Shown: positions 780-61,936 of the stretch, piece by piece | How the letters are laid out: each line of letters begins with the position of its first letter | Numbering within the stretch: position 1 is the first letter of the stretch | NCBI GenBank assembly: GCA_049580385.1 | Contig: JBAUPV010000020.1 | Location: forward strand, 13,366-77,365 | Length of the DNA stretch: 64,000 bases | Source of the DNA: Desulfobaccales bacterium | GTDB lineage: Bacteria > Desulfobacterota > Desulfobaccia > Desulfobaccales > 0-14-0-80-60-11 | Direction of reading: 5' to 3' | Made by a program: the position numbers and the translations under genes | The notes under the pieces: generated by a model | What the model saw: only the letters and a program-made list of their open reading frames with translations | The model's database searches: none | Told to the model about the DNA's origin: nothing

Positions 780-1151
780 TCAATAGCCCTGAGCGGGAGG
801 CCCATAGTTATAGCCCTGCTGCGCAGGCGGATAACCTGCCGGAGGCGGCCCCTGATAATAAGCCTGGGGTGGCGGCGACTGATAACAGGGCTGTGGGGGG
901 GCGACCGAGCGCCCATAGGCTTCTCCAGCCACGCCACCCAAGGCGGTCCCCAGCAAACCGCCGATAGCCGCACCCTTCCAAGGATTGTTGGGACTGGCGG
1001 CGATCCCCAGAGCCGCACCCCCGGCGGCCCCCAAACCCGCACCAGTAAGCAGGTAGGGGTTCTGCTGCGCCATGTTGGTGCCCGCACAGCCTCCCAGAAA
1101 ACTCACGAGTACCACCCCCAGCAGGAGATGGGATGCCCTCACCTTCCTCAA
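780..1151 (-). CDS. Glycine-zipper lipoprotein with Pro/Gln/Tyr-rich C-terminal tail
   Basis: Frame of ORF 780..1307. It has a lipobox-type signal LLLGVVLVSFLGGC, then the glycine-zipper stretch GAGLGAAGGAALGIAAS..GAAIGGLLGTALGGVAGEAYG, then PPQPCYQSPPPQAYYQGPPPAGYPPAQQGYNYGPPAQGY. The start is uncertain: TTG 1151 or GTG 1142 give a normal signal peptide, while ATG 1307 would add about 52 residues. Confidence 0.6.
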   Translation of the reverse strand: MRKVRASHLLLGVVLVSFLGGCAGTNMAQQNPYLLTGAGLGAAGGAALGIAASPNNPWKGAAIGGLLGTALGGVAGEAYGRSVAPPQPCYQSPPPQAYYQGPPPAGYPPAQQGYNYGPPAQGY

Positions 1152-1368
1152 AACGAGCTGCCATTTATCCACAACCCGATCCTCCCCATTGAAGCTATGG
1201 TCCACATTGATCAGCTGCTTTTTCAGCCAGTCCCACTTCACCTTACCAACATATTGGCCAAGGGAGGGGCCGGTCCTGAAGGGGGCGGCCCCCTCCCTCG
1301 AATCCATCTGCGTTATTCACCGGTCATTTCTTGCCAACCAAACCATGAGATTCCTGATAGTCAGCAGC

Positions 1369-2295
1369 CTAAATTGCCCCTGAAGGCGATGCGACTTGAG
1401 ACTGAGAACCGGACTGAAGGCCAGTCTGACTCGCCGGGTTAGTGGTATTATGGTAATAGCCTGACGAACTGGCGGCACTATTGGGAGATTGACCCTGCGC
1501 CGAGTAGCCTGCACGATTATAAGAAGTGCCAGGATTATACTGCTGACCATAGCCTGACGAACTGGCGGCAGTGTTGGGAGATTGACCCTGTGCCGAGTAG
1601 CCTGCACGATTATAAGAGGAGCCAGGATTATATTGCTGCCCCCCATTGGGCGCCTGGAATTGCCGGTTTCCTAAGCCATTCCCCTGGACGAATGAAGGAC
1701 GAGGTTGTTGCCATTGGTTCTGGTGATCATTCCAGCCGTAAGCATCCCGGTGTTGGTCCCACCACTGATGCCCGTGATCATTCCGCCAATAGTCATGCCG
1801 GTGCTCGTCCCACCAATTATGCCGGTGATCATCCCGCCAATAGTCATTCCGGTGATCAACCCACTGGCGGTTTTGGCCGTTCCAGCCGTAGGCGTTGCCA
1901 TTGGGCTGTTGCCACTGACGATTTTGGCCGTTCCAACCATAGGCGTTACCATTGGGCTGCTGCCACTGGCGGTTTTGGCCGTTCCAACCATAGGCGTTGC
2001 CATTAGGCCGTTGCCACTGCCGGTTTTGGCCGTTCCAGCCGTAGGCATTGCCATTGGGCTGCTGCCCTTGGCGGTTTTGGCCGTTCCAACCATAGGCGTT
2101 ACCATTGGGCTGTCGCCCCTGGCGGTTTTGGCCATTCCAGCCGTAGGCGTTGCCATTGGGCTGTCGCGGGGTGAAAGCCTGGCGATTGATCTGTGGGGCA
2201 AAACCACGATTAGGTCCGGCCTGGGCGCTCAGGGGGCTCAGCGCCACAAACAGAGCCATCGTGAGAATAAAGCTCCACCATCTTTCTGGCCTCAT
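1369..2295 (-). CDS. Secreted tandem-repeat protein (6 x 17-aa PNGNAYGWNGQNRQxxQ units, a His/Trp/Asp-rich block, 2 x 31-aa Ser/Gly/Tyr-rich units)
   Basis: ATG at 2295 is preceded by GAGGAGGAT (reverse complement of 2300-2310). Signal peptide MRPERWWSFILTMALFVALSPLSAQA. The repeats are visible at both protein and DNA level. The His-rich segment is HRNDYWRDDHRHNWWDEHRHDYWRNDHGHQWWDQHRD. Confidence 0.7.
   Translation of the reverse strand: MRPERWWSFILTMALFVALSPLSAQAGPNRGFAPQINRQAFTPRQPNGNAYGWNGQNRQGRQPNGNAYGWNGQNRQGQQPNGNAYGWNGQNRQWQRPNGNAYGWNGQNRQWQQPNGNAYGWNGQNRQWQQPNGNAYGWNGQNRQWVDHRNDYWRDDHRHNWWDEHRHDYWRNDHGHQWWDQHRDAYGWNDHQNQWQQPRPSFVQGNGLGNRQFQAPNGGQQYNPGSSYNRAGYSAQGQSPNTAASSSGYGQQYNPGTSYNRAGYSAQGQSPNSAASSSGYYHNTTNPASQTGLQSGSQSQVASPSGAI
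1456..1641. repeat. Two tandem 93-bp repeats (in frame, inside CDS 1369..2295)
   Basis: atagcctgacgaactggcggca... recurs at 1456 and 1549. It encodes GQQYNPG(S/T)SYNRAGYSAQGQSPN(T/S)AASSSGY twice. Confidence 0.9.
1861..2166. repeat. Six tandem 51-bp repeats (in frame, inside CDS 1369..2295)
   Basis: Units start at 1861, 1912, 1963, 2014, 2065 and 2116. Each resembles ccactggcggttttggccgttccagccgtaggcgttgccattgggctgttg with only a few substitutions per unit. Confidence 0.95.
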
Positions 2296-2386
2296 TTGAT
2301 TATCCTCCTCAAGATAAATTGGCACTCCGGGTTCGTTAATTTAGATTACCCCCCGCGTGAAAGGGTTAATGGTCTTTTCCGAATTT

Positions 2387-2737
2387 TTAAAAATTATATT
2401 GTATTGTGCCGGATAAACCTCGAGGTGCGGGCTGGGAGAAATAGGGTTGGGGTTGCGCATAAGGAATTGCCATGACGGGAGCAACGGGCGCGACATAGGC
2501 AACCCGCGGTGGTCCATAAACTCGCTCCACGTAGCGGGGATACTGTGGCCCTCTATAAAAGCGGCGGAAATGCGAATCGTAGCGGCCAAAGTCATGATGC
2601 CTTGGGCCATCCCAGCCATAGGCATTCCCGTGGGGGTGGTGATATGGTTGATATGGTTCCGCTTGGACGGTTAGGGAGTTTAAGGCCAGGATAAGGCCCA
2701 TCATCAGGATAATGCTCAACCATCTTCTCAGGTTCAT
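2387..2737 (-). CDS. Small secreted His/Tyr/Pro/Arg-rich protein sharing the GNAYGW motif with the downstream repeat protein
   Basis: AGGAGG lies 7 nt upstream of ATG 2737. Signal peptide MNLRRWLSIILMMGLILALNSLTVQA. The mature part contains HHPHGNAYGWDGPRHHDF. Confidence 0.65.
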   Translation of the reverse strand: MNLRRWLSIILMMGLILALNSLTVQAEPYQPYHHPHGNAYGWDGPRHHDFGRYDSHFRRFYRGPQYPRYVERVYGPPRVAYVAPVAPVMAIPYAQPQPYFSQPAPRGLSGTIQYNF

Positions 2738-2989
2738 AGGCTTTCCCTCCTGAAAAAATTTTGCAGCCTGGATTTGCTACCTATTTAGAAGTTGGTCAGC
2801 GGAAAGTGTTAAGGGAGATTATTTGCTTGATTGCAAGGAATTACTACTCATTACTTAAGACTGCTAAGACTAATTTTCATAAAATTCCTAATAGTTACGC
2901 TTTTAAACTCATAGAACAGTTTCCTGTTCATCCTGTTAAATGGTCATTATAAGCATAGTAAAATGATCATTTCGTGCATCTGACTGCCG

Positions 2990-3036
2990 ATATGGTCATT
3001 GTGACCATATAAAAATGATCATTAGGTTTATATACT
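2990..3036 (+). promoter_or_regulatory. Copy 1 of a conserved operator/promoter block: perfect palindrome ATATGGTCA-TTG-TGACCATAT plus a TATACT -10 box
   Basis: Palindrome at 2990-3010 and TATACT at 3031-3036. The same roughly 47-nt block recurs at 9437 and 10347. Here it precedes the RBS and ATG of CDS 3120..3350. Confidence 0.5.
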
Positions 3037-3119: not shown

Positions 3120-3350
3120 ATGATAAAGATTATCGATTTCGGATGCAACGAACATAATTGGCGTCAAGTCACCCTCACCGACCCTGATGCTGACCTGGTC
3201 AAAGATTGTATTTATAATCTTCCCAAAGATGGGAAGTATCATACCTACGTATGCTCTCACGGTCATACCCATCGTATCCGTGAATTTAAGCTGCCTCATG
3301 TGGTACCGGCGCCCGCAGATGAGAAGAGGTCAAGTCCTTCTAGGCGCTAA
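3120..3350 (+). CDS. Small Cys/His-containing hypothetical protein (76 aa)
   Basis: GGAAGAGGAT lies 6 nt before ATG 3120. Sequence MIKIIDFGCNEHNWRQVTLTDPDADLVKDCIYNLPKDGKYHTYVCSHGHTHRIREF.... It sits downstream of operator/promoter copy 1. I recognise no family. Confidence 0.5.
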   Translation: MIKIIDFGCNEHNWRQVTLTDPDADLVKDCIYNLPKDGKYHTYVCSHGHTHRIREFKLPHVVPAPADEKRSSPSRR

Positions 3351-3942: not shown

Positions 3943-4428
3943 GTGAATACCACAACCGTCAAGGGGCGCCCTGGCGCCTGGACTTGCGCTTTAGGGCTGG
4001 TCATCTGCCTAATGGGCTGCCAGACACCGGTTGCTAAGGCGCCGCAGTTGCCGCCGCGGCCACCGGCGGCCATGCTGCCCCGCCCGGTGCGACCCACTTT
4101 TTATGTGACCGTAAATCAGCTTAGTTTGCGAGCCTGTCCCGGCCTGGATTGCCAAAAAATCTCCACTCTGGATTTAAATACAGAAGTGGAAAAGATGGGG
4201 GTGGGCGACAATTGGACGCAGATCAAGGTAAAAAAGGGGGGGGCTATAGGTTATGTAAATTCACGCTATCTCTCCCAGCACCCCGTGGAAGTCGCCCAAC
4301 CCGCCAAGAAGAGACCCAAAAAGGCAAAACCTCACAAAGCCACCCCGCCTTCTGAAGCAGCGGAGGAAGTGAGGGAAGCCGGGCCCCAGAAGCAGGAGCC
4401 TTCAGGTCCACTCCCCCGGGCCATGTAG
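3943..4428 (+). CDS. SH3-domain lipoprotein with Lys/Pro-rich tail
   Basis: An in-frame GTG at 3943 gives the lipobox ALGLVICLMGC. A bacterial SH3-like segment follows: FYVTVNQLSLRACPGLDCQKISTLDLNTEVEKMGVGDNWTQIKVKKGGAIGYVNSRYL. The track start at 3781 would overlap the previous gene. Confidence 0.65.
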   Translation: MNTTTVKGRPGAWTCALGLVICLMGCQTPVAKAPQLPPRPPAAMLPRPVRPTFYVTVNQLSLRACPGLDCQKISTLDLNTEVEKMGVGDNWTQIKVKKGGAIGYVNSRYLSQHPVEVAQPAKKRPKKAKPHKATPPSEAAEEVREAGPQKQEPSGPLPRAM

Positions 4429-4462
4429 GAGGAGGCAGGAGAGGAGTCAAGATCCTGCGAAT

Positions 4463-5251
4463 TTACATAAATTCTGGCTGCACTTCTGGTTCTTCTCTTT
4501 GCTTAAAAGGTTTAAGTTCATCCTTTGCGGGCACTCCCCGAGGTGCAACCAAAGGCCTGGCTTCCAAGTCGCGGCTGGCAACCCAACCCAAAGCGCCACT
4601 GGCAGGTTGGCGAACCATAAACCAGCCATCGGTTTCTCCCAGTTTTTGCACCTGATCGTTAAACTGCAGAGCCCTGATAACCTCGCTGCGGCTCGCTGGC
4701 CTGGCCAGCAAGTTTAGCTTCCGCACCGCCACATAGTAATAGGCTTTCTGAGCTGGGCTTGGCTGGGCCTCCTCGATGCGTTTCGTAAGTGACGCGGCCG
4801 GCACCCAGCCAAGGCTCCGGGTTTTAATCACCAGGATGCGCCACCAGCCCTGGGCCCCTTCTTCGACCCTTTGCACCTGATCGCCCCGGTAGAGTACCTC
4901 TAAGGGAAGGCAATCGGGGCGCGGGCACCCGCGCAGAAACAAGCTATCCTTTTTAACAAAATAAAAAACGGAAGCCACCGGTTTGGAGCTGAGTAACTCC
5001 TTGCGAATCCATCCAGTCTGCTCACTGCGCAAGACTTTAATGTGCCACCAAGATGATTCGCCGACCTCCAATTTTTCTACCTCATCGCCCCGGTAAAGTG
5101 GGCCCAGCACCTTGCCGCCAACGCCAGGGCTCTCCAGCAAATAAGTCACTTCCGGTATAACGTAGAACGAAACCTCAGGTGGGTTAACGGGGGGATGCGC
5201 ACAGGAGCAGGTCAAACTTAGAATTATAATTAGTATTATTAATCTGGTCAT
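4463..5251 (-). CDS. Lipoprotein with three bacterial SH3-like repeats
   Basis: Signal MTRLIILIIILSLTCSC. Three repeats of the pattern Y-V.....L.R..P......(V/L)..L..GD.V........WW.I.V.....GW(I/V): SSWWHIKV..GWI, QGWWRILV..GWV, DGWFMVRQ..GWV. Confidence 0.75.
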   Translation of the reverse strand: MTRLIILIIILSLTCSCAHPPVNPPEVSFYVIPEVTYLLESPGVGGKVLGPLYRGDEVEKLEVGESSWWHIKVLRSEQTGWIRKELLSSKPVASVFYFVKKDSLFLRGCPRPDCLPLEVLYRGDQVQRVEEGAQGWWRILVIKTRSLGWVPAASLTKRIEEAQPSPAQKAYYYVAVRKLNLLARPASRSEVIRALQFNDQVQKLGETDGWFMVRQPASGALGWVASRDLEARPLVAPRGVPAKDELKPFKQREEPEVQPEFM

Positions 5252-6240: not shown

Positions 6241-6462
6241 ATGCGGCAGTCTCGGTTTACGGTGGCAGAAATCGGCCGGATTATTGTGAAGTCGGAGTTG
6301 CCGACGTCCGGCATTGCCGGCACAGCCCGGAAGTACGGCATTAAAGAGGCGACGCTGTGCCGTTGGCGAGCCAAGTACAAAGGTCTGGGCAAATCAGAGG
6401 CCAGGCGCCTCCAGCTCCCGGATGATGAGAACCGGCAGCTAAAAAGGCTGGTGCAGTTTTAG
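6241..6462 (+). mobile_element. IS3-family transposase OrfA N-terminal fragment (remnant; no OrfB)
   Basis: MRQSRFTVAEIGRIIVKSELPTSGIAGTARKYGIKEATLCRWRAKYKGLGKSEARRLQLPDDENRQLKRLV is the HTH plus the start of the leucine zipper of IS3/IS911-type OrfA. The frame stops abruptly and unrelated sequence follows. Confidence 0.7.
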
Positions 6463-6622
6463 GGGGTGGTAACCATCGTTAAGCCATCGTTATTTGGGTC
6501 CCAATGCAGATTGTAAATCAGGCCAAGTTGTGCTATTGTATAATCTACCGTGTCTCTCAGACCAGAAGATACCATGGGCTGCTGCCCTTCTAATTTTCTA
6601 AATTATTTTGCAGGGAAAACAA

Positions 6623-8689
6623 ATGTCTTCTAAAGATGATCCTCGGAAATTTCCCTGGCATCTTTTTATTGTATTCTTTATATTATCCATTGGTATTTTA
6701 ACTATAGGATATCTGTATTATAAAAATCAAGAGAACTACCTGAAGAAAGATAAACAGCAAGAGCTTGCCGGCATTATTGCCCTTAAAATTGACCAAATTA
6801 TCGCTTGGCGCCAGGAACGTCTCGATTTTGCCAGTGCGATTATGGATGATCCTTTTTTTACTATGCGGGTCAGGGATTTTCTTAAGGGCAGACCCAAACC
6901 CATGCTCACCAAACAAATTCTCGAACGTTTAGCAGCCTTGGCTTCATATCAATTTCAAAGTATAGCTTTAATCGATCCTCAAGGAAATGTTAGACTCGCA
7001 TTTCCCGCGTCAAAGCAACAACTTAATCCTTATTTGAAATCCTTGGCCCTTCAAGCAGTCCTGACCCAAAAAGTCCTGTTTTCCGACCTCTATCTGGATG
7101 AAAACTCGAAAGTTAGGCTCAGCATTCTAACCCCCCTTATGGTCATTCAGAGGAATGAGAAGGTAGTAGTCGGCATTATTCTGATGAGGATCGAACCTTA
7201 TCAGTATCTGTATCCTCTGATCAAGTCGTGGCCTACTCCCAGTCTGACCGGGGAGACCGAATTAGTGCAACGCGAAGGGGATGAAGTGGTGTTTCTGAAT
7301 GAACTTCGGCATCGGCAGAATAAGCCCCTCGAGTTGCGGCTTTCCGTAAACACACCTAATTTGCCGGAAGCCATGTTCGCTCGGGGAAAGAAAGGCATTG
7401 TCGAAGGGATCGATTATCGAGGTGTTCCTGTCCTGGCGGCTGTCGGGCTTATTGCTGATTCACCGTGGTTTCTGGTGGCAAAGATCGACGTCGATGAGGT
7501 CTACTCCCCGTTGCAGAAGCGCAGTAAGGAAGTAGTTTTTCTCTTGATTACCCTCATTGCCCTTACTGGTATCTGTGTTGCATATTTCTGGAGGAATCAG
7601 CAAATTAGATTTTACCGCAGGGAATATCAGGCCGAGCGTGAACGTCGCGCCATAGCCCAACGTTACGAATATCTGACCAGATTTGCCAACGATATCATCC
7701 TGGTAGCCGACCAAAATTTGAAAATTGTTGAAGCAAACAACCAGGCCGTGGCCTCTTATAGGTATGAACGAGAGGAACTCCTTAAATTACATTTAAAAGA
7801 CCTGTACCGGCCGGGGTCGGAACATGTGCTCAGTACCCGCATGCGACACGTAGAAGATAAAGGCGGGTTGATCTTTGAGACCGTCCAACGCCGCAAGGAT
7901 CGAACCACTTTTCCGGCGGAGGTCAGTTTGCGCCTTTTAGAAGTGGAAGGCCAAAAGTTGTTCCAAGAAATCATCCGGGATATTACCGAGCGCAAGCGAG
8001 CCGAAGAAAAGCTCACAGAATCGGAAAAGAACCTGCGCCGGCTGACCTCACAGCTCCTGAGTGCCCAAGAGGACGAGCGGAAACGCCTTTCCATGGAACT
8101 TCACGATGAATTGGGACATGCCCTGCTGGCCTTGAAGCTCCAATTAGAATCCGCGGAAGAGGAACTATTGCCTCAGCAAATTTCTCTAAAAGATGAGGTC
8201 TCCAAGATGCTCAGGGGCATCTACGCGACCATTGAAAAGGTGCGTCGTCTTTATCTCGATCTCAGTCCAGGCGATTTGGAGGATCTGGGCCTGACCACTT
8301 CGTTACATTCCCTGATCGATGATTTTGCCGAGCTGCAAAAAAACATAGCCTGGACGGTAAAAATAAACCACCTCGATGGCCTTTTCTCGCTCCCCACTCA
8401 GATAGCTATCTATCGGATAGTACAGGAAGCTTTGACCAATATCGGCAAACATGCCAAACCTAAACACGTGTTGATTGAAATCAAAAAAGAAAAACAGGGG
8501 GTCAAATTTCTTATCGAGGATGATGGCGTTGGTTTTGAATGGAATAAGATTGTCATCGAGAAAAAAACCTTAGGCCTCCTGGCTATGGAAGAGCGGGTCA
8601 ATATCCTAGAGGGCTCTTTTGAACTCTGGAGCCGGGAAAACCAGGGAACAAAAATTTCTTTTGCCATTCCCATTCCCGAGGGAGCATAA
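6623..8689 (+). CDS. Sensor histidine kinase (two TM segments flanking a periplasmic sensor domain, PAS, HisKA_3 dimerisation/H-box, HATPase)
   Basis: H-box MELHDELGHALLALKLQL (NarX/DegS-type HisKA_3). PAS-like segment IILVADQNLKIVEANNQAVASYRYEREELL. ATPase motifs QEALTNIGKHA and DDGVGF..GLLAMEERV. ATG 6623 is preferred to TTG 6608. Confidence 0.9.
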   Translation: MSSKDDPRKFPWHLFIVFFILSIGILTIGYLYYKNQENYLKKDKQQELAGIIALKIDQIIAWRQERLDFASAIMDDPFFTMRVRDFLKGRPKPMLTKQILERLAALASYQFQSIALIDPQGNVRLAFPASKQQLNPYLKSLALQAVLTQKVLFSDLYLDENSKVRLSILTPLMVIQRNEKVVVGIILMRIEPYQYLYPLIKSWPTPSLTGETELVQREGDEVVFLNELRHRQNKPLELRLSVNTPNLPEAMFARGKKGIVEGIDYRGVPVLAAVGLIADSPWFLVAKIDVDEVYSPLQKRSKEVVFLLITLIALTGICVAYFWRNQQIRFYRREYQAERERRAIAQRYEYLTRFANDIILVADQNLKIVEANNQAVASYRYEREELLKLHLKDLYRPGSEHVLSTRMRHVEDKGGLIFETVQRRKDRTTFPAEVSLRLLEVEGQKLFQEIIRDITERKRAEEKLTESEKNLRRLTSQLLSAQEDERKRLSMELHDELGHALLALKLQLESAEEELLPQQISLKDEVSKMLRGIYATIEKVRRLYLDLSPGDLEDLGLTTSLHSLIDDFAELQKNIAWTVKINHLDGLFSLPTQIAIYRIVQEALTNIGKHAKPKHVLIEIKKEKQGVKFLIEDDGVGFEWNKIVIEKKTLGLLAMEERVNILEGSFELWSRENQGTKISFAIPIPEGA

Positions 8690-8690
8690 A

Positions 8691-9329
8691 ATGAATCCAT
8701 ACACCGTCATCCTGGCCGATGATCATGCCATGTTCAGAGAAGGGGTAAGAAGGATCGTCGAACGGATTGAGGATCTATCCATAATCTGTGAAGTCAACGA
8801 TGGGCTCGAACTGCTAGACGTCCTAAAAGGGTCCCGCCCTGATCTAATCATCCTCGACATTTCGATGCCAAATCTGCGCGGTTTGGAGGCCATCAGGGAA
8901 ATTAAGAAGATTTATCCAAAAGTAAAAGTTTTAGTATTGACTATGCATAAGAAACGAGAATTTGTCCAACAGGCATTGAGAGATGGCGCCGATGGTTTTC
9001 TGCTCAAAGAAGATGCAGGTGGCGAACTTATCCGGGCAGTGCAAACCATCAGAAATGGTGAAAAGTATCTCTCTTCTCTACTTTCCAGTGTTCTAACTAG
9101 TATAGCTTTAGAGAAAGAAGAACCTGAGATTTTAACGAGGCGGGAAAAAGAAGTTTTAAAACTTGTAGCGGAAGGTAAAAAAACCAGGGAAATCGCCGAA
9201 GCTTTGTACATCAGTCCTAACACAGTGCGCCGGCACCGCTATAACGTCATGGAAAAGCTGAAGATCAAGAGACTGGCCGATTTGGTAAAGTATGCTATAT
9301 CTCAGAATTATATTCTCGACCAGCCTTAA
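8691..9329 (+). CDS. NarL/FixJ-family response regulator (REC + LuxR-type HTH)
   Basis: MNPYTVILADDH..., phospho-acceptor context LIILDISMP, and LuxR HTH REKEVLKLVAEGKKTREIAEALYISPNTVRRHRYNVMEKL. The start lies 1 nt after the kinase stop. Confidence 0.92.
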   Translation: MNPYTVILADDHAMFREGVRRIVERIEDLSIICEVNDGLELLDVLKGSRPDLIILDISMPNLRGLEAIREIKKIYPKVKVLVLTMHKKREFVQQALRDGADGFLLKEDAGGELIRAVQTIRNGEKYLSSLLSSVLTSIALEKEEPEILTRREKEVLKLVAEGKKTREIAEALYISPNTVRRHRYNVMEKLKIKRLADLVKYAISQNYILDQP

Positions 9330-9436
9330 CCTCTCCGAGCCTAATCAATACCCAACAGGGAAATGATCTCCCGCGCCGGGTCCAATCACGCATTTTTGCC
9401 TCAAAAATGTCATTCTGAGCCCCGCGAAAAACCCCT

Positions 9437-9484
9437 ATATGGTCATTGTGACCATATAAAAATCATCATTTAGGATTATATACT
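9437..9484 (+). promoter_or_regulatory. Copy 2 of the palindromic operator/promoter block
   Basis: ATATGGTCATTGTGACCATAT at 9437-9457 and TATACT at 9479-9484. About 45 of 48 positions are identical to copy 1. Confidence 0.5.
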
Positions 9485-9490
9485 GCTTTT

Positions 9491-9592
9491 TTTTAATGCA
9501 TATAATAGATTCAGATTAGGGTTCCCCCATGAGTCCCTAAATCCATGTTTCCTCCTTGGCTGGCTGAGACTCCCCTCTCAGCCAGTTTTTTT
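9491..9592 (+). ncRNA. Candidate small RNA or terminated leader, paralogue A (about 100 nt)
   Basis: The start is predicted about 7 nt after TATACT. Internal hairpin TTAGGG(9516-9521)/CCCTAA(9535-9540). CCTCC at 9551-9555. Intrinsic terminator GGCTGGCTGAGA-ctcccc-TCTCAGCCAG plus T7. No ORF longer than a few codons. Confidence 0.5.
9558..9592 (+). terminator. Rho-independent terminator
   Basis: A GC-rich stem of about 11 bp (GCTGGCTGAGA / TCTCAGCCAGT) followed by TTTTTTT. Confidence 0.8.
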
Positions 9593-9709
9593 ATCAAGAA
9601 AATTTATCTGGGTATTTTTGAGACTCAGCTTGTAATCTTTTAAATCTGGTAACCAAGTCAGTGGCTTAACTATGGCTTGCACTGTATTCATTAGTGGAGG
9701 ATAACTGCC

Positions 9710-10075
9710 ATGAAAATACGGGATTTGAAATGGAAAAGCCTTTCTATGTGGCCCCCGGAATGGTCGGTGTCAGACTATCAGGCAGGAGAAGAAGGGTTTC
9801 TGGAAGACGTTCAGCTGCACCATGAATTATCAGCAAGGGTTATATCTATTAAAGCCAATCATCTTGGGAACTGCAGGAAAGGCATTATGATGCTGGAAGA
9901 TCCTGCCCAGCTTGAACTCGTCTTTGAAAAACTACGAGAAAACCTAGGAAGGCCACTATCCGAAATAAGTGATTTGGAAATAAATTTCACTCCAGTCCCG
10001 CAGAAATATGGCATGAAGCAAGCCCGGCCTAACTCCTCAGCCAGGAATATAAAGCGAGTAGTTAATAGGAAGTGA
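9710..10075 (+). CDS. Hypothetical protein (121 aa)
   Basis: GGAGG lies 7 nt before ATG 9710. MKIRDLKWKSLSMWPPEWSVSDYQAGEEGFLEDVQLHHELSARVISIKANHLGNCRKGIMMLEDPAQLELVFEKLRENLG.... I recognise no family. Confidence 0.6.
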   Translation: MKIRDLKWKSLSMWPPEWSVSDYQAGEEGFLEDVQLHHELSARVISIKANHLGNCRKGIMMLEDPAQLELVFEKLRENLGRPLSEISDLEINFTPVPQKYGMKQARPNSSARNIKRVVNRK

Positions 10076-10346
10076 AACCAGTTGACAATAGCCGCAGATT
10101 GGTTTGTGTTTCCTGTTTCCGTTAGCCAGCCGCCGTTTCCCAACACCTCCGATGAGCTAATTGGGGGATCAAAGTCGGGGAAAGAGCTGCTTGCCCTGCC
10201 GAGAGGTGGTAGTCTGCGAGCCAAGGAGGTGGTATATTCGGGATTGAATCCGTGGGGGGGGAGCCTAAGACCATTGAATGACAGGGATAACCAAGGCTGC
10301 CGGATAAAATTTCGGCTCAGACATTATTGACTACCCGAGTCTTCCA

Positions 10347-10394
10347 ATATGGTCATTGTGGCCATATAAAAATCATCATTTAGGATTATATACT
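10347..10394 (+). promoter_or_regulatory. Copy 3 of the palindromic operator/promoter block (one mismatch in the right half-site)
   Basis: ATATGGTCATTGTGGCCATAT at 10347-10367 and TATACT at 10389-10394. Confidence 0.5.
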
Positions 10395-10400
10395 GCTTTT

Positions 10401-10506
10401 TTTTAATGCTTATAGTTGAATCAGATTAAGGTGCCTCCGTTTGCCTTAATCCAGAGTCTATGGTTGGCTGGCTGAGACTACCCCGGTCTCAGCCAGTTTT
10501 ATTTTT
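10401..10506 (+). ncRNA. Candidate small RNA, paralogue B (about 105 nt)
   Basis: The 5' 20 nt match paralogue A (ctgcttttttttaatgc). Perfect 8-bp hairpin GATTAAGG(10424-10431)/CCTTAATC(10444-10451) with CCTCC (10434-10438) in the loop. Terminator at 10466-10506. No downstream + strand gene. Confidence 0.5.
10466..10506 (+). terminator. Rho-independent terminator
   Basis: GGCTGGCTGAGAC-taccccg-GTCTCAGCCAG followed by TTTTATTTTT. Confidence 0.8.
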
Positions 10507-10661
10507 GCCCTAATTCACTTGGTACAACTACTGGGGGACAGAGCCGCATAGCAGATAGCGGCATTTTAGGATGTGCTCCTGGCAATAATCTGCCAACCTC
10601 ACGCTCCGTTTTTTTGGGAGAAAAAAGAAAAAGTCGCGCCCATATCTTGCATACCCAGTTT

Positions 10662-12767
10662 TCAGATGGAGGTCACCTCTGCATGCAGCACAGTACCAAT
10701 CTTATCGACCTCTATCCAGCGGAAGTGGGGTGGGCTTTTGAAAATCGGGTCGTCACCGATCGGCCCGATGGCCGGGGTCTGGAGGATCAGGGGCCGCGAT
10801 TTATCCAGACAATCCTGCCAAGCGCGAGGATTGCATGTGTAATCCCCATAGTAGACGCTGGGTTGTTTCATCTGAGGGTCCCAGTGCAGGCAGCACTCTA
10901 GCCTCCAATGGGCATGCCCGGCGAGGACCATGGTAACGGGGCGGTACCGGTCCTCAGGGCGTCCTTCGGCGCGACCGAGACAGAGGTGCAGGAACTGGCT
11001 GAGATAATGATTAATGGACCCGTAGCGGATGTTATATTTCCCGGGCTCTAAAGGGATTTCCTGCTGGCCTTGCAGGGCGCTGTCTGCTTTAAGACGCTGT
11101 TTCTTCGAAAGGTTGATGGGCGGGGCGTGCACCCCGATAAAGACCCGGGCCGGGCCGTCAGCTATGCTCTCGCCGTGCCTGATGAGGCGAAGCAGCCCCT
11201 CCATCCAGACGATCTGGCTGTATGGATAAAACTCATTGGCGCCGAAAAAGCCCATGGAGTCGGGAGAACCGCCCAGGGTGCCAGTCTTGATGCCAATGGG
11301 GCCCAGTTTCTTGCGGCCGTCGTCCCAGAAGCGTTGCGTCCGGATACAGTCGAACCCCGTATCCAGGATGAGGAAGTAGTTTTTATCTACCCGGAAGGCG
11401 TAATTAAAATAGGGGTTTAGATTGAGAAAATAGTCTCTCAATGCCGGCCAGCCCGCTTCCAGGGCCATGAGGTCCGGGGACTTCCAGCGAACCAGCCACT
11501 TCACCAAACCGATGACCCAGTTTATCAGGCCCGAGACCCCTACGATCACTACGCCCACCCACTTTGTAGGCAGCTTAGCGCTAGTGGCTATGCCGGAGGC
11601 AAGTGGCGCCAGCACCTGCACCTTCCAGGTTGCCATCCTGGGCAGGAACCAGTCCAGCGGGTTGCCCCGAACCTTGCCATCTCGGAAAACCAGACCCCTC
11701 AGCTTATCACGCAATTTAGGTACCCATTCACCCACATCGTGAAGGAATTTGCCGCCGAGCATGACGTTGGACAGCAGCGCTCCCTCCCCGATCATCTTCT
11801 GGTAGAACTCCTTGGTCGCCTGGGTTAATTCTTCGGGATCATCGGCCCAGAAGGGGTCCAGGGCTTTGGACGACTTCTTGTCCAGTCCATAGGCCGCCGC
11901 GTTGTCCGCAGGCGGGTAAGGGAAGAACCGCCAGTCGTGATTCCCGGTGCTGGTGAATACCGGCACCTTGATTGCGGGCGTTTTCCCGCCCCGGCCCCCC
12001 TTGGCCTCAGCGCCGGTGAGGATATCGCAGAGGAGTTTCCAGTTATTCTCCCCGTAGTCATCCCGGTCGCTGTAATTGTGCTCTTTAAAATCGACGAGGT
12101 CCCCCAGCAGCAGCACGAAGTCGAGTTCTCCCCGGTCGGCCAGGTCATTCGCATGCTGAATGAAACGGCGCAGATTCTTGTTGAAGTTGACAAAGGGAAT
12201 GGGGGAGGAGGCGTTCGCATCCTTTCCGATCTTCGAGGTGGCATCGTAGAGGTCATTGCGCAGCGCCACGTGCAGGTCCGTAGCGTGGATAAAGCGGAGC
12301 ATACCTTCGGCAGGCCGCAGGGCCAGGGCGTGGAAAACTTTGAAGATCTCCTCGGCGCCCTGTTTCAACACCAGGTTATACAGGGTGATCCGAGGACCGC
12401 CGGTGATCGTCCGTTGTTGCTCCTCTGTCAGTTCTGCCGAGGGTCTGGCGGAGAACCGCACAAACCGTGCTTTGCCTGCGAAGATTGAGGCCCTGAGGGT
12501 CGTACTGATATGCCACCGGGTCTGCTCTACCCGCTCAAAGGTACGCGGCAGGCCAGGATCCGTCAGTTCATGCTGAGCTTCCTGAACCAGAGCGAACTCC
12601 TGGCCTCCCCCGAAAGACGGTTTCGCCACGATGCTGTAAACGCTCCGGGCCGCGTCGATCGGCTCCGCAATCACGACATCGATTCCATCCCGCATGAGGT
12701 CTTGCGATGAAATGATGATGGGACAGCCCAAATTAGGGCTCAGAATACGCGGGAGTTTGATGTCCAT
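10662..12767 (-). CDS. Calcineurin-like metallophosphoesterase with an internal hydrophobic (probably membrane-inserted) segment and a unique about 160-aa N-terminal domain
   Basis: The motifs appear in order: FIHATDLHV (D-x-H), LLLGDLVDF (GD-x-x-D), TSTGNHDW (GNH[D/E]) and VLAGHAHW (GH-x-H). Between them lies the hydrophobic stretch KVQVLAPLASGIATSAKLPTKWVGVVIVGVSGLINWVIGLVKWLV. It sits immediately downstream of the FadL-like gene. Confidence 0.8.
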   Translation of the reverse strand: MDIKLPRILSPNLGCPIIISSQDLMRDGIDVVIAEPIDAARSVYSIVAKPSFGGGQEFALVQEAQHELTDPGLPRTFERVEQTRWHISTTLRASIFAGKARFVRFSARPSAELTEEQQRTITGGPRITLYNLVLKQGAEEIFKVFHALALRPAEGMLRFIHATDLHVALRNDLYDATSKIGKDANASSPIPFVNFNKNLRRFIQHANDLADRGELDFVLLLGDLVDFKEHNYSDRDDYGENNWKLLCDILTGAEAKGGRGGKTPAIKVPVFTSTGNHDWRFFPYPPADNAAAYGLDKKSSKALDPFWADDPEELTQATKEFYQKMIGEGALLSNVMLGGKFLHDVGEWVPKLRDKLRGLVFRDGKVRGNPLDWFLPRMATWKVQVLAPLASGIATSAKLPTKWVGVVIVGVSGLINWVIGLVKWLVRWKSPDLMALEAGWPALRDYFLNLNPYFNYAFRVDKNYFLILDTGFDCIRTQRFWDDGRKKLGPIGIKTGTLGGSPDSMGFFGANEFYPYSQIVWMEGLLRLIRHGESIADGPARVFIGVHAPPINLSKKQRLKADSALQGQQEIPLEPGKYNIRYGSINHYLSQFLHLCLGRAEGRPEDRYRPVTMVLAGHAHWRLECCLHWDPQMKQPSVYYGDYTCNPRAWQDCLDKSRPLILQTPAIGPIGDDPIFKSPPHFRWIEVDKIGTVLHAEVTSI

Positions 12768-12943
12768 GGCCTCTCTCCTCGGTGTGTAAGATTATGTCGT
12801 CCAGAGCTTTGGGGCGCGATTCCTAGACATGGCTTCACATTCTGCGTAAGCCGCAAGGGCCACCGAAAATGGGCTCACCCGCCAGATTTTGGGCCCATAT
12901 AAGGGTTGACCCAAGGAATAGGCTTCCCGCCCAATTTGGGAGA

Positions 12944-61166: not shown

Positions 61167-61936
61167 CCAACTTTAAAATCGTCATATCCGGGCTGGGCGG
61201 GATTCTGCTCTTGCTCATAGTGATCCCCCTGGTCGGGATGATGGCCACCGCAAAACCCGCGGTCATGGGATCCACGATAAGCGACCCGGAGGTCATCGAG
61301 TCGATCCTCCTGACCCTGCGGGCCGCCTTGTATGCCACCCTCACGTGCCTGGTGTTTGGCATTCCTTTGGCTTATGCCCTGGCCCGGTGGAATTTTCCGG
61401 GGAAGACCCTGGTCCAGGGCACCATCGATTTGCCGGTGATGATTCCCCATACCGCTGCCGGCATCGCCCTGCTACTGGTATATGGCCCCGACTTTTTGCT
61501 GGGCAAGGCCTTTGCCAGGGTGGGCGTCACCTTTCCGGGCACCGTCGCCGGCATCAGCCTGGCCATGGCCTTTGTGTCCCTGCCGTTTCTGGTCAACGCC
61601 GCCCGGGATGGTTTTCTGGCCGTCGATCCACGCCTGGAACGCGTCGCCAGGACGCTGGGGGCTTCCCCCTGGCAGGCGTTCTTCAAGGTCAGCCTGGCGC
61701 TTTCCTGGCGGTCGATTCTCTCGGGCGCCATTTTGATGTGGGCCCGGGGAATTGCCGAATTCGGGGCAGTGGTCATGTTGACCTACCATCCCATGGTCGC
61801 CCCTATTTTGATTTGGGAGCGTTTCGAGAATTACGGCCTCAAATACGCCTCTCCCGTGGCGGTGATTCTGATCCTCCTCTGTCTGGTGTTCTTTTCCGGG
61901 CTGCGCTGGCTGGCGGGACGGAAACAGGAGGGGTAG
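61163..61936 (+). CDS. wtpB: Tungstate/molybdate ABC transporter permease
   Basis: The ATG overlaps the wtpA stop (ATGA). Six hydrophobic segments. EAA-type loop FLVNAARDGFLAVDPRLERVARTLGAS. Confidence 0.82.
   Translation: MTNFKIVISGLGGILLLLIVIPLVGMMATAKPAVMGSTISDPEVIESILLTLRAALYATLTCLVFGIPLAYALARWNFPGKTLVQGTIDLPVMIPHTAAGIALLLVYGPDFLLGKAFARVGVTFPGTVAGISLAMAFVSLPFLVNAARDGFLAVDPRLERVARTLGASPWQAFFKVSLALSWRSILSGAILMWARGIAEFGAVVMLTYHPMVAPILIWERFENYGLKYASPVAVILILLCLVFFSGLRWLAGRKQEG

Follow-up and report, generated by a model that had tools for sequence, protein, structure and literature searches.

Two paralogous candidate small RNA genes behind a palindromic promoter in a Desulfobaccales genome

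The window that we analyse here is a 64,000-nucleotide (nt) stretch of DNA from an uncultured Desulfobaccales bacterium (assembly GCA_049580385.1, contig JBAUPV010000020.1). Between positions 9436 and 10506 it contains two similar blocks, copy A and copy B, which are direct repeats 910 nt apart with a small coding sequence (CDS) in between. Judged from their sequences, A and B are most likely a genuine, well-delimited pair of small RNA (sRNA) genes of an undescribed, narrowly distributed Desulfobaccales family.

Two copies of one compact unit

Blocks A (9436-9592) and B (10346-10506) can be aligned end to end. Both consist of a 23-bp palindrome, a TATACT hexamer, a 5' box, a hairpin and a strong intrinsic terminator. 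The order downstream of TATACT is a T-run, a conserved TTAATGC(A/T)TATA(A/G)T box, hairpin 1, a 16-nt linker and the terminator. The 50-nt stretch that holds the palindrome and the -10 hexamer (9437-9486 and 10347-10396) differs at one position; the chance expectation for such a match is 0. The features of the two copies and of the CDS between them are:

9436-9458, no strand: putative operator of copy A, a perfect 23-bp palindrome (TATATGGTCA-TTG-TGACCATATA, 100% complementary), centred about 44 nt upstream of the predicted start
9479-9484, plus strand: -10 hexamer of copy A, TATACT, 20 nt downstream of the palindrome
9491-9592, plus strand: predicted sRNA of copy A, about 102 nt; 5' end estimated to about 3 nt either way; covariance-model match at 9483-9594, 119 bits
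9493-9506, plus strand: 5' box of copy A, UUAAUGCAUAUAAU, predicted single-stranded, conserved within the family
9514-9543, plus strand: hairpin 1 of copy A, stem GAUUAGGG/CCCUAA(A)UC with one bulged A and a C-rich 13-nt loop, UUCCCCCAUGAGU
9544-9559, plus strand: linker of copy A, predicted single-stranded; holds UUUCCUCCUU, with CCUCC at 9551-9555
9560-9592, plus strand: intrinsic terminator of copy A, 10-bp stem (two more pairs possible), loop CUCCCC, U7; -19.5 kcal/mol
9710-10075, plus strand: conserved hypothetical CDS of 121 amino acids (aa) between the copies, a neighbour and not an obligatory partner
10346-10368, no strand: putative operator of copy B, the copy A palindrome with one A to G change in the right arm
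10389-10394, plus strand: -10 hexamer of copy B, TATACT, 20 nt downstream of the palindrome
10401-10506, plus strand: predicted sRNA of copy B, about 102-106 nt; covariance-model match at 10393-10505, 114 bits
10424-10451, plus strand: hairpin 1 of copy B, stem GAUUAAGG/CCUUAAUC plus two wobble pairs; loop with CCUCCGUU
10468-10506, plus strand: intrinsic terminator of copy B, 11-bp stem, loop UACCCCG, then UUUUAUUUUU; -23.6 kcal/mol

The predicted RNA of copy A folds at -29.7 kcal/mol (z = -4.87) and that of copy B at -36.2 kcal/mol (z = -4.61). For neither copy did any of 200 dinucleotide shuffles fold as well. In copy A, TTAGGG (9516-9521) pairs with CCCTAA (9535-9540) to form the core of hairpin 1, the bulged A lets the stem extend, and the loop includes CCCCC. 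In copy B the DNA arms are GATTAAGG (10424-10431) and CCTTAATC (10444-10451), and CCTCC lies inside loop 1 at 10434-10438. The terminator arms of copy A, CTGGCTGAGA and TCTCAGCCAG, span 9560-9585 and are followed by T7. Those of copy B, CTGGCTGAGAC and GTCTCAGCCAG, span 10468-10496 and are followed by TTTTATTTTT. A terminator scan detects both terminators, with stems of 12 (A) and 14 (B) pairs, of which 10 and 11 are perfect Watson-Crick, and with U-runs after them.

Most of this had been proposed before by a model that saw only the letters of the window (the sequence-only reading). Its end-to-end alignment, the shared palindrome and TATACT, the arms and coordinates of hairpin 1, the strong terminators and the position of CCUCC in the linker of A and the loop of B are all borne out, nearly to the base. 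The same reading stated that neither copy has an open reading frame (ORF) beyond a few codons. This fails for a 32-codon ORF at 9545-9643, which overlaps copy A and is absent in B. It holds in so far as neither this ORF nor a 7-codon mini-ORF is conserved.

Relatives of the RNA body in other genomes

A palindrome scan of a genome collection led to two metagenome-assembled genomes (MAGs), L001 (a Desulfobaccales bacterium) and L002 (an 'uncultured delta proteobacterium'). Each carries the full unit: palindrome, -10, 5' box, a hairpin with the CCUCCGUU loop and an identical terminator arm. Seven JGI metagenome contigs (L003-L009) came from a metagenome scan with the terminator pattern. Neighbour look-ups of homologues of CDS 9710-10075 (21 proteins) and of a small lipoprotein gene (175 proteins) added L010-L022 and L023-L032, respectively. 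Covariance-model building across related genomes had been proposed as a check of the sequence-only reading, and it was carried out with a model, R1, built from eight copies. In the 64-kb window R1 finds exactly two copies (119 and 114 bits). In the related loci it recovers the RNA body in twelve more distinct copies, at 46-127 bits, from Desulfobaccales MAGs and peat/wetland metagenomes. A thirteenth relative, in L013, is a leader version fused to an ORF and scores 22.9 bits.

The gene contexts of the RNA unit are of at least five unrelated kinds, and a same-strand downstream gene is mostly absent. In the window and in its close relative L010/11 (CDS 95% identical) the unit follows a two-component system. 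In L001 it comes after genes for His-rich secreted proteins that are syntenic with window positions 780-2950, and it occupies the position held in the window by an ORF at 3120-3350. In L002/3 it adjoins a tRNA and an isochorismatase-like gene on the opposite strand, and in L004/5/7/8/9/23 it is convergent with the small lipoprotein gene. This recurrence in unrelated neighbourhoods strongly favours a discrete, terminator-ended small RNA, as the sequence-only reading had claimed.

Some of these neighbours deserve a short description. The lipoprotein gene that is convergent with the RNA in six loci (L004, L005, L007, L008, L009 and L023) encodes about 89 aa and has 175 homologues in Desulfobaccales. 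A conserved stretch of about 45 nt separates its stop codon from the RNA terminator, and fragments only of this stretch are kept in L002/3 and at copy B of the window (GCCCTAATTCA, 10507-10517). RNA copies in L005 are flanked by paralogous genes for ROS/MucR-family zinc-finger regulators (2534-3004 and 4153-4596, both minus strand). In the window, the minus-strand genes 1369-2325 and 2387-2737 encode two secreted His/Asn/Gly/Trp-rich repeat proteins without a family match, the first of which is built of 51-nt tandem repeats (1810-2217). Both are found in synteny in L001, transcribed away from the palindrome promoter region.

Two direct copies 910 nt apart that flank a small CDS, and further copies in varied genomic contexts, could also be the ends or copies of a miniature inverted-repeat transposable element (MITE) or another selfish repeat. 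The sequence-only reading had named this outcome as one that would overturn it. We consider it extremely improbable. There are no terminal inverted repeats, nor any other inverted repeats beyond those of the operator, hairpin 1 and the terminator. The 64 kb hold just two copies, the boundaries of the unit differ from locus to locus, and there are no matches among viral contigs, phage records and plasmids. L010 is rearranged at the position of copy B and offers no clean empty site for a comparison of target-site duplications.

Copy A could instead be a cis-acting, prematurely terminated leader (attenuator- or riboswitch-like) of CDS 9710-10075, with copy B a relic of that arrangement. Copy A lies 117 nt upstream of this CDS on the same strand. 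There is no convincing sigma-70 promoter at 9593-9709, so some read-through expression of the CDS is conceivable. Leader versions also exist elsewhere, in L013 (running into an ORF) and among the relatives without the palindrome in L005 (a degenerate terminator followed by a 37-codon ORF). This alternative, which the sequence-only reading had offered for copy A, now appears improbable. Six of the nine distinct loci with homologues of the CDS are without the RNA, and none lies upstream of the homologues in L013-16, L017, L018, L019, L020, L021 and L022. The L013 homologue is preceded by a TTGACA-type promoter of its own. Neither copy has an antiterminator: the best rival pairing of the terminator 5' arm reaches -6.7 (A) and -11.2 kcal/mol (B) against -19.5 and -23.6 kcal/mol, and falls at least 12 kcal/mol short of the terminator hairpin. 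In most family members no gene follows on the same strand, and no riboswitch in Rfam matches. Because the contexts vary, homologues of the CDS occur without the RNA and no antiterminator is found, we regard the copies as probable stand-alone sRNA genes rather than as a conserved leader, a riboswitch or a MITE.

The RNA body is also found behind other promoters. Another conserved region of about 100 nt, one that lacks the palindrome, precedes the same hairpin, linker and terminator in L009, L023 and the second copy of L004/5 (type-2 relatives; copies behind the palindrome are type 1). This region contains TGGCAG-N5-ATGCA at the spacing of a sigma-54 promoter, whose -12 region coincides with the 5' box, and, upstream of it, a TTGACAGG...TGTCAG inverted repeat. 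In L006/7 the body lies behind yet another, unrelated upstream sequence. Since the body recurs behind sigma-54-like and unrelated upstream regions, the selected, conserved part would be the RNA and not the promoter alone. The type-2 relatives and the leader versions are:

L004, 1778-1898, minus strand: type-2 relative, RNA body without palindrome
L009, 3042-3175, minus strand: type-2 relative, RNA body without palindrome
L023, 3310-3445, minus strand: type-2 relative, RNA body without palindrome
L013, 4463-4963: leader version, palindrome promoter, 5' box and C-rich-loop hairpin fused to a 129-codon ORF
L005, 4800-5108, minus strand: leader version, type-2 copy with degenerate terminator, then a 37-codon hydrophobic ORF

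In L013-15 the leader hairpin is a GGGGC/GCCCC stem that runs straight into the ORF. The ribosome-binding site (RBS) of the 37-codon ORF in L005, AACGGAGGAUA, is complementary to the C-rich loops. By sequence, then, the family has sRNA versions and leader versions, and both window copies are clear sRNA versions. A bolder idea, which we put forward as speculative and rather unlikely, is that one RNA body serves three expression contexts: the palindrome/response-regulator promoter, the sigma-54-like promoter (L004, L009, L023) and a leader of small ORFs whose loop is complementary to their own RBS (L005, L013). If true, the family would be caught in transition between a cis-acting leader directed against the Shine-Dalgarno (SD) sequence and a trans-acting sRNA. 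It would also funnel two separate signalling inputs onto one seed.

The comparison of copies bears on the mini-ORF as well. The 5' box contains seven codons and a stop, AUG-CAU-AUA-AUA-GAU-UCA-GAU-UAG, and the transcript could encode the corresponding tiny peptide. An ORF of this length (MHIIDSD, MLIVESD, MHIIGSK or MHIIDLD) is present in A, B, L002, L004, L008 and L010. A peptide function is nevertheless very improbable. No SD sequence precedes the ORF, L001 has ACG in place of the start codon, L003 has lost the stop codon, and in type-2 copies the AUG falls in the predicted promoter. The stop codon belongs to a hairpin arm and is hence constrained for another reason.

Changes in hairpin 1 had been taken by the sequence-only reading as covariation that supports a structured RNA. 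MAFFT alignments of the hairpin gave the 3' arm in inconsistent registers, owing to the bulge in A and the A/U-rich arms, so we compared 14 versions at eight pair positions in a register anchored by hand on the conserved flanks. At least five of the eight pairs are present in 11 versions and at least six in nine. Double changes occur at three of the eight positions: A-U to G-C in copy A, its orthologue L010A and L013, U-A to A-U in L002/3, and U-A to G-U in L003. In L023 the terminator carries a compensatory U-A to C-G change. The A-U to G-C change to which the sequence-only reading pointed is thus genuine and found in more than one lineage. Formal support is weak. In the alignment, which was made with the covariance model, 90% of the cells are paired versus 88% in shuffles, and the covariation score of 0.093 (versus 0.068) is reached by nine of 500 shuffles; most pairs are invariant. 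Hairpin 1 is broken in L008, where five non-contiguous pairs out of eight remain between a B-type 5' arm and an L002-type 3' arm, and it is imperfect in L002, L006 and L007. Overall, we call the covariation suggestive.

Loop 1, the linker and the terminator loop have a C+U fraction of 0.6-1.0 in nearly all copies and contain CCUCC, CUCC or CCCC. Copy A has a C/U-rich motif in all three segments, copy B in loop 1 and the terminator loop only.

Finally, A and B could be duplicated promoter-leader cassettes without RNA function, that is, regulon promoters with a former 5' untranslated region that were copied by recombination and closed by a chance terminator. The palindrome promoter is the most conserved part of the unit and also occurs without the RNA body (2990-3036 in the window; L009). 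Copy B is absent from the close relative L010, L008 resembles a recombinant with a broken hairpin, and the window shows local rearrangements (a deletion of about 340 nt and an IS3-type transposase fragment at 6241-6462, both described below). Even so, we find this explanation quite unlikely. Three unrelated upstream regions, one of them sigma-54-like, precede a conserved RNA body. Pairing in the hairpin and the terminator is kept via compensatory changes, and the C/U-rich composition of the three unpaired segments is held while their sequences drift.

The palindrome promoter and its candidate regulator

Neither copy has a -35 consensus, and a generic sigma-70 scan yields no full promoter at either. 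A palindrome centred about 44 nt upstream of the start is the geometry of activator-dependent (class II-like) promoters. From the -10, the missing -35 and the operator centre near -44 we predict that the A and B promoters are activator-dependent and of the sigma-70 type. The palindrome is also found in nine related loci, and in all palindrome promoters its spacing to a -10-like hexamer (TATACT, TATAAT, TATATT, CATACT or TAATAT) is constant within 1 nt. Its core, TGGTCA-N3-TGACCA, is over-represented in the window, with eight matches at two or fewer mismatches versus 1.9 expected. The other features of the window that concern the promoter and its regulation are:

2940-2971: degenerate palindrome-promoter copy that adjoins the third copy
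2990-3036, plus strand: third palindrome with TATACT promoter (perfect palindrome at 2990-3010), upstream of ORF 3120-3350
3120-3350: ORF of 76 aa, Cys/His-rich, preceded by the third palindrome promoter
6608-8689, plus strand: sensor histidine kinase (PAS, HisKA_3 and HATPase_c), candidate signal input
8691-9329, plus strand: NarL/FixJ-family response regulator (receiver and GerE helix-turn-helix), candidate palindrome binder
10326-10345, plus strand: conserved upstream box TTGACTACCCGAGTCTTCCA, directly 5' of the copy B palindrome; also in L001, L002, L003, L008 and L010

Because the third copy sits before ORF 3120-3350, the palindrome and its -10 appear to be a regulon promoter that is not specific to the RNA. 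Palindrome promoters also precede ORFs in L009 and L013. ORF 3120-3350 is probably in one regulon with both RNAs; family searches with this ORF and other small co-regulated proteins (Pfam and NCBIfam for this ORF) gave no matches. A palindrome-like site at 61770 (TGGTCATGTTGACCT) lies inside a coding region and was dismissed as chance.

The upstream box TTGACTACCCGAGTCTTCCA is absent at copy A, where it was lost through a deletion of about 340 nt relative to L010. The deletion lies between the response-regulator gene and copy A (window 9430-9436 versus L010 3385-3725). It is bounded by two TATGG repeats and takes out the GACTA..CGAGT box upstream of the palindrome together with a gene remnant. 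A second non-coding element of about 120 nt, with TTGACA at its start, shows nucleotide-level conservation in four loci (window 10082-10200; L010 4373-4491; L013 4337-4458; L005 3566-3689, minus strand). It always lies just upstream of a palindrome promoter or its remnant. We looked for a convincing secondary structure or promoter in the element upstream of copy B and found none; the element may be an extended regulatory region.

The two-component system next to copy A is a candidate for controlling the palindrome promoters. The closest structures to its response regulator are NarL, VraR and DesR, and the protein scores 142 bits against the UvrY/GacA model, under the cutoff of 280. Dimeric GerE-type regulators (NarL, EvgA, DosR, GacA) typically bind palindromes of about 16-20 bp. 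In L013-15 an orthologous two-component system (91% and 93% identity) adjoins a palindrome promoter in inverted gene order, and a NarL-family system thus stands beside palindrome promoters in two different gene orders. The response regulator 8691-9329 would be the likely activator of the palindrome promoters. No terminator intervenes between the stop codon of its gene and copy A, so the transcript of the two-component operon probably also stops at the terminator of copy A.

A short ORF (6241-6462) immediately precedes the histidine kinase gene and is syntenic with a 66-aa gene annotated PF01527 HTH_Tnp_1 in L010/L011. Its counterpart is presumably an OrfA-type helix-turn-helix fragment of an IS3-family transposase, and the ORF hints at local rearrangement.

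A possible mode of action and comparison with known systems

To explain the two copies, we lean, with some reserve, towards a pair of paralogues from an sRNA family specific to this uncultured Desulfobaccales lineage, whose members are regulatory and probably act in trans. An activator-dependent sigma-70-type promoter with a palindromic operator would transcribe each copy, the activator being the adjacent NarL-family response regulator. A strong, apparently constitutive intrinsic terminator would end each transcript at about 100 nt. The RNA would consist of an A/U-rich 5' tail with the UUAAUGCAUAUAAU box, hairpin 1 with its C-rich loop, the linker (C/U-rich in A) and a terminator with a C-rich loop. 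The exposed C/U-rich segments would pair with GGAGG-type SD regions and block the initiation of translation in trans. The loop and linker sequences differ between A and B, so the two RNAs could have overlapping yet non-identical targets. We propose SD occlusion in trans because the C/U-rich unpaired segments share the layout of the sRNA LhrC and are reminiscent of RsaE/RoxS; it is this analogy that suggests it for the A and B RNAs.

The sequence-only reading had assumed GGAGG sequences throughout the window. Full GGAGG precedes seven of the 46 long ORFs, and a 4-nt SD core 29 of the 46, and that assumption falls. Target prediction for the CCUCC region, proposed earlier as a check, was run as duplex scans in the window, and no target stands out. 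The best in-window duplex, of -25 kcal/mol, joins the linker of copy A to the region around the start of the neighbouring phosphoesterase gene; one of 30 shuffled seeds equals it, and the site is no more than a lead:

12720-12790: best duplex partner, in gene 10662-12767 on the minus strand; UCCAUG...UUUCCUCCUUGG against CCGAGGAG...CAUGGA, spanning the SD sequence and the start codon

Besides the weak formal covariation and the broken or imperfect hairpins, several observations weigh against regulatory sRNAs that occlude SD sequences. CCUCC is complementary to any SD sequence and confers no specificity, and the linker of copy B is not C-rich. A duplex scan of 58 crude start regions in the window does no better than shuffled seeds. 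The exact 8-mer complement of the copy B loop, AACGGAGG, occurs in the window solely as the antisense of that loop; in the related loci it occurs three times outside RNA copies, twice at RBSs. The link to the regulator is based solely on adjacency, in closely related genomes. The family is narrow, and homologues of the lipoprotein gene at 68% identity or less have no detectable RNA copy nearby. L010, a close relative, has no copy B, which is therefore dispensable or recent.

A real sRNA could also work in another way, by binding a protein or acting as a sponge (of an RNA chaperone, for instance, or of a protein that binds C-rich RNA) or through the 5' box. Paralogues and genomes share the terminator stem GGCUGGCUGAGAC without change, an invariance that would be unusual if the stem did no more than terminate. 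Every type-1 copy keeps the 5' box, and the window scans gave no specific SD target. This option is decidedly unlikely in our view. The loops contain no repeated GGA motifs of the Csr/Rsm type, the 5' box is absent in L006/7 and degenerate in L009, and nothing in the body is as consistent as its C/U-rich layout. A Csr/Rsm sponge RNA in particular does not fit C/U-rich loops without GGA.

To our knowledge, very few sRNAs have been characterised in Desulfobacterota generally, and for Desulfobaccales a full-text literature search turned up no paper that describes any. With a well-delimited sRNA family, post-transcriptional regulation in uncultured sulfate reducers of peat and wetland would gain a concrete entry point. 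Along with the family would come small co-regulated proteins, a candidate regulator of the two-component type and a clear operator. Being small and built of modules (23-bp operator, -10, RNA of about 100 nt, terminator), the unit lends itself to heterologous tests although its host is uncultured.

We compared the pair with known RNA families. The Rfam search that had been proposed as a check was run, and no family reaches its threshold for copies A and B: at gathering thresholds the window gives two tRNAs only, and four related loci give nothing. Membership of LhrC (RF00616; 24.8 bits versus a gathering score of 110, in Rfam E-value mode) and of CyaR (RF00112; 22 bits versus 47) was rejected.

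LhrC is still the best Rfam alignment to copy A, a sub-threshold one, and the resemblance is one of design, not descent. In Listeria monocytogenes, transcription of LhrC1-5 requires the two-component system LisRK, and SD regions are bound by redundant C/U-rich UCCC motifs, which lie in loop A, in the linker and in the terminator loop (PMC4132741). As with LhrC, we see a predicted multicopy sRNA of about 100 nt with a hairpin, a single-stranded stretch and a terminator, C/U-rich in loop 1, the terminator loop and, in copy A, the linker. In contrast to LhrC, the copies belong to Desulfobacterota and not Firmicutes, and their motifs are CCUCC/CCCCC rather than UCCC. LisR is an OmpR-type regulator, whereas the candidate here is of the NarL type with a palindromic operator.

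The C-rich loop motifs of other Firmicutes sRNAs (RsaE/RoxS, RsaA, RNAIII, SprD and FsrA) pair with SD sequences and block translation (PMC4132741, PMC3961350, PMC4409812). The window copies likewise have exposed C-rich loop motifs; unlike RsaE/RoxS they come from another taxon, and there is no similarity in sequence or covariance model. RoxS is controlled by the two-component system ResDE.

Among Alphaproteobacteria, NfeR1 (alpha-r14) and CcsR ('cuckoo') carry CCUCC-type anti-SD motifs in several unpaired regions and are often multicopy. Like these, the window copies are Gram-negative with CCUCC-type motifs in unpaired regions, but they have no Rfam match and other promoters. Their fold also differs from that of NfeR1, which has three hairpins. 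NfeR1 is reported to be wired to the two-component system NtrBC (PMC10746234).

The proposed wiring recalls Rsm. The GacA box is a palindromic upstream site through which a NarL/FixJ-family regulator activates sRNA genes. Here too a NarL/FixJ-family regulator is the candidate, and a palindrome lies upstream of candidate sRNA genes. The mechanism would be a different one: Rsm/Csr RNAs sequester CsrA with many GGA loops, and there are no GGA loops here. GacS/GacA acting via RsmY/RsmZ (CsrB family) is a two-component system that may work largely through its sRNAs (PMC4132741).

As in the Qrr1-5 RNAs of Vibrio, the paralogues share one RNA body, and type-2 relatives lie behind a predicted sigma-54-like promoter. 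The window copies themselves are not of the sigma-54 type and have no sequence similarity to Qrr; the likeness is in promoter type only. The family would add a Gram-negative, non-proteobacterial case to the design in which a C-rich motif meets the Shine-Dalgarno sequence, a design best known from Firmicutes.

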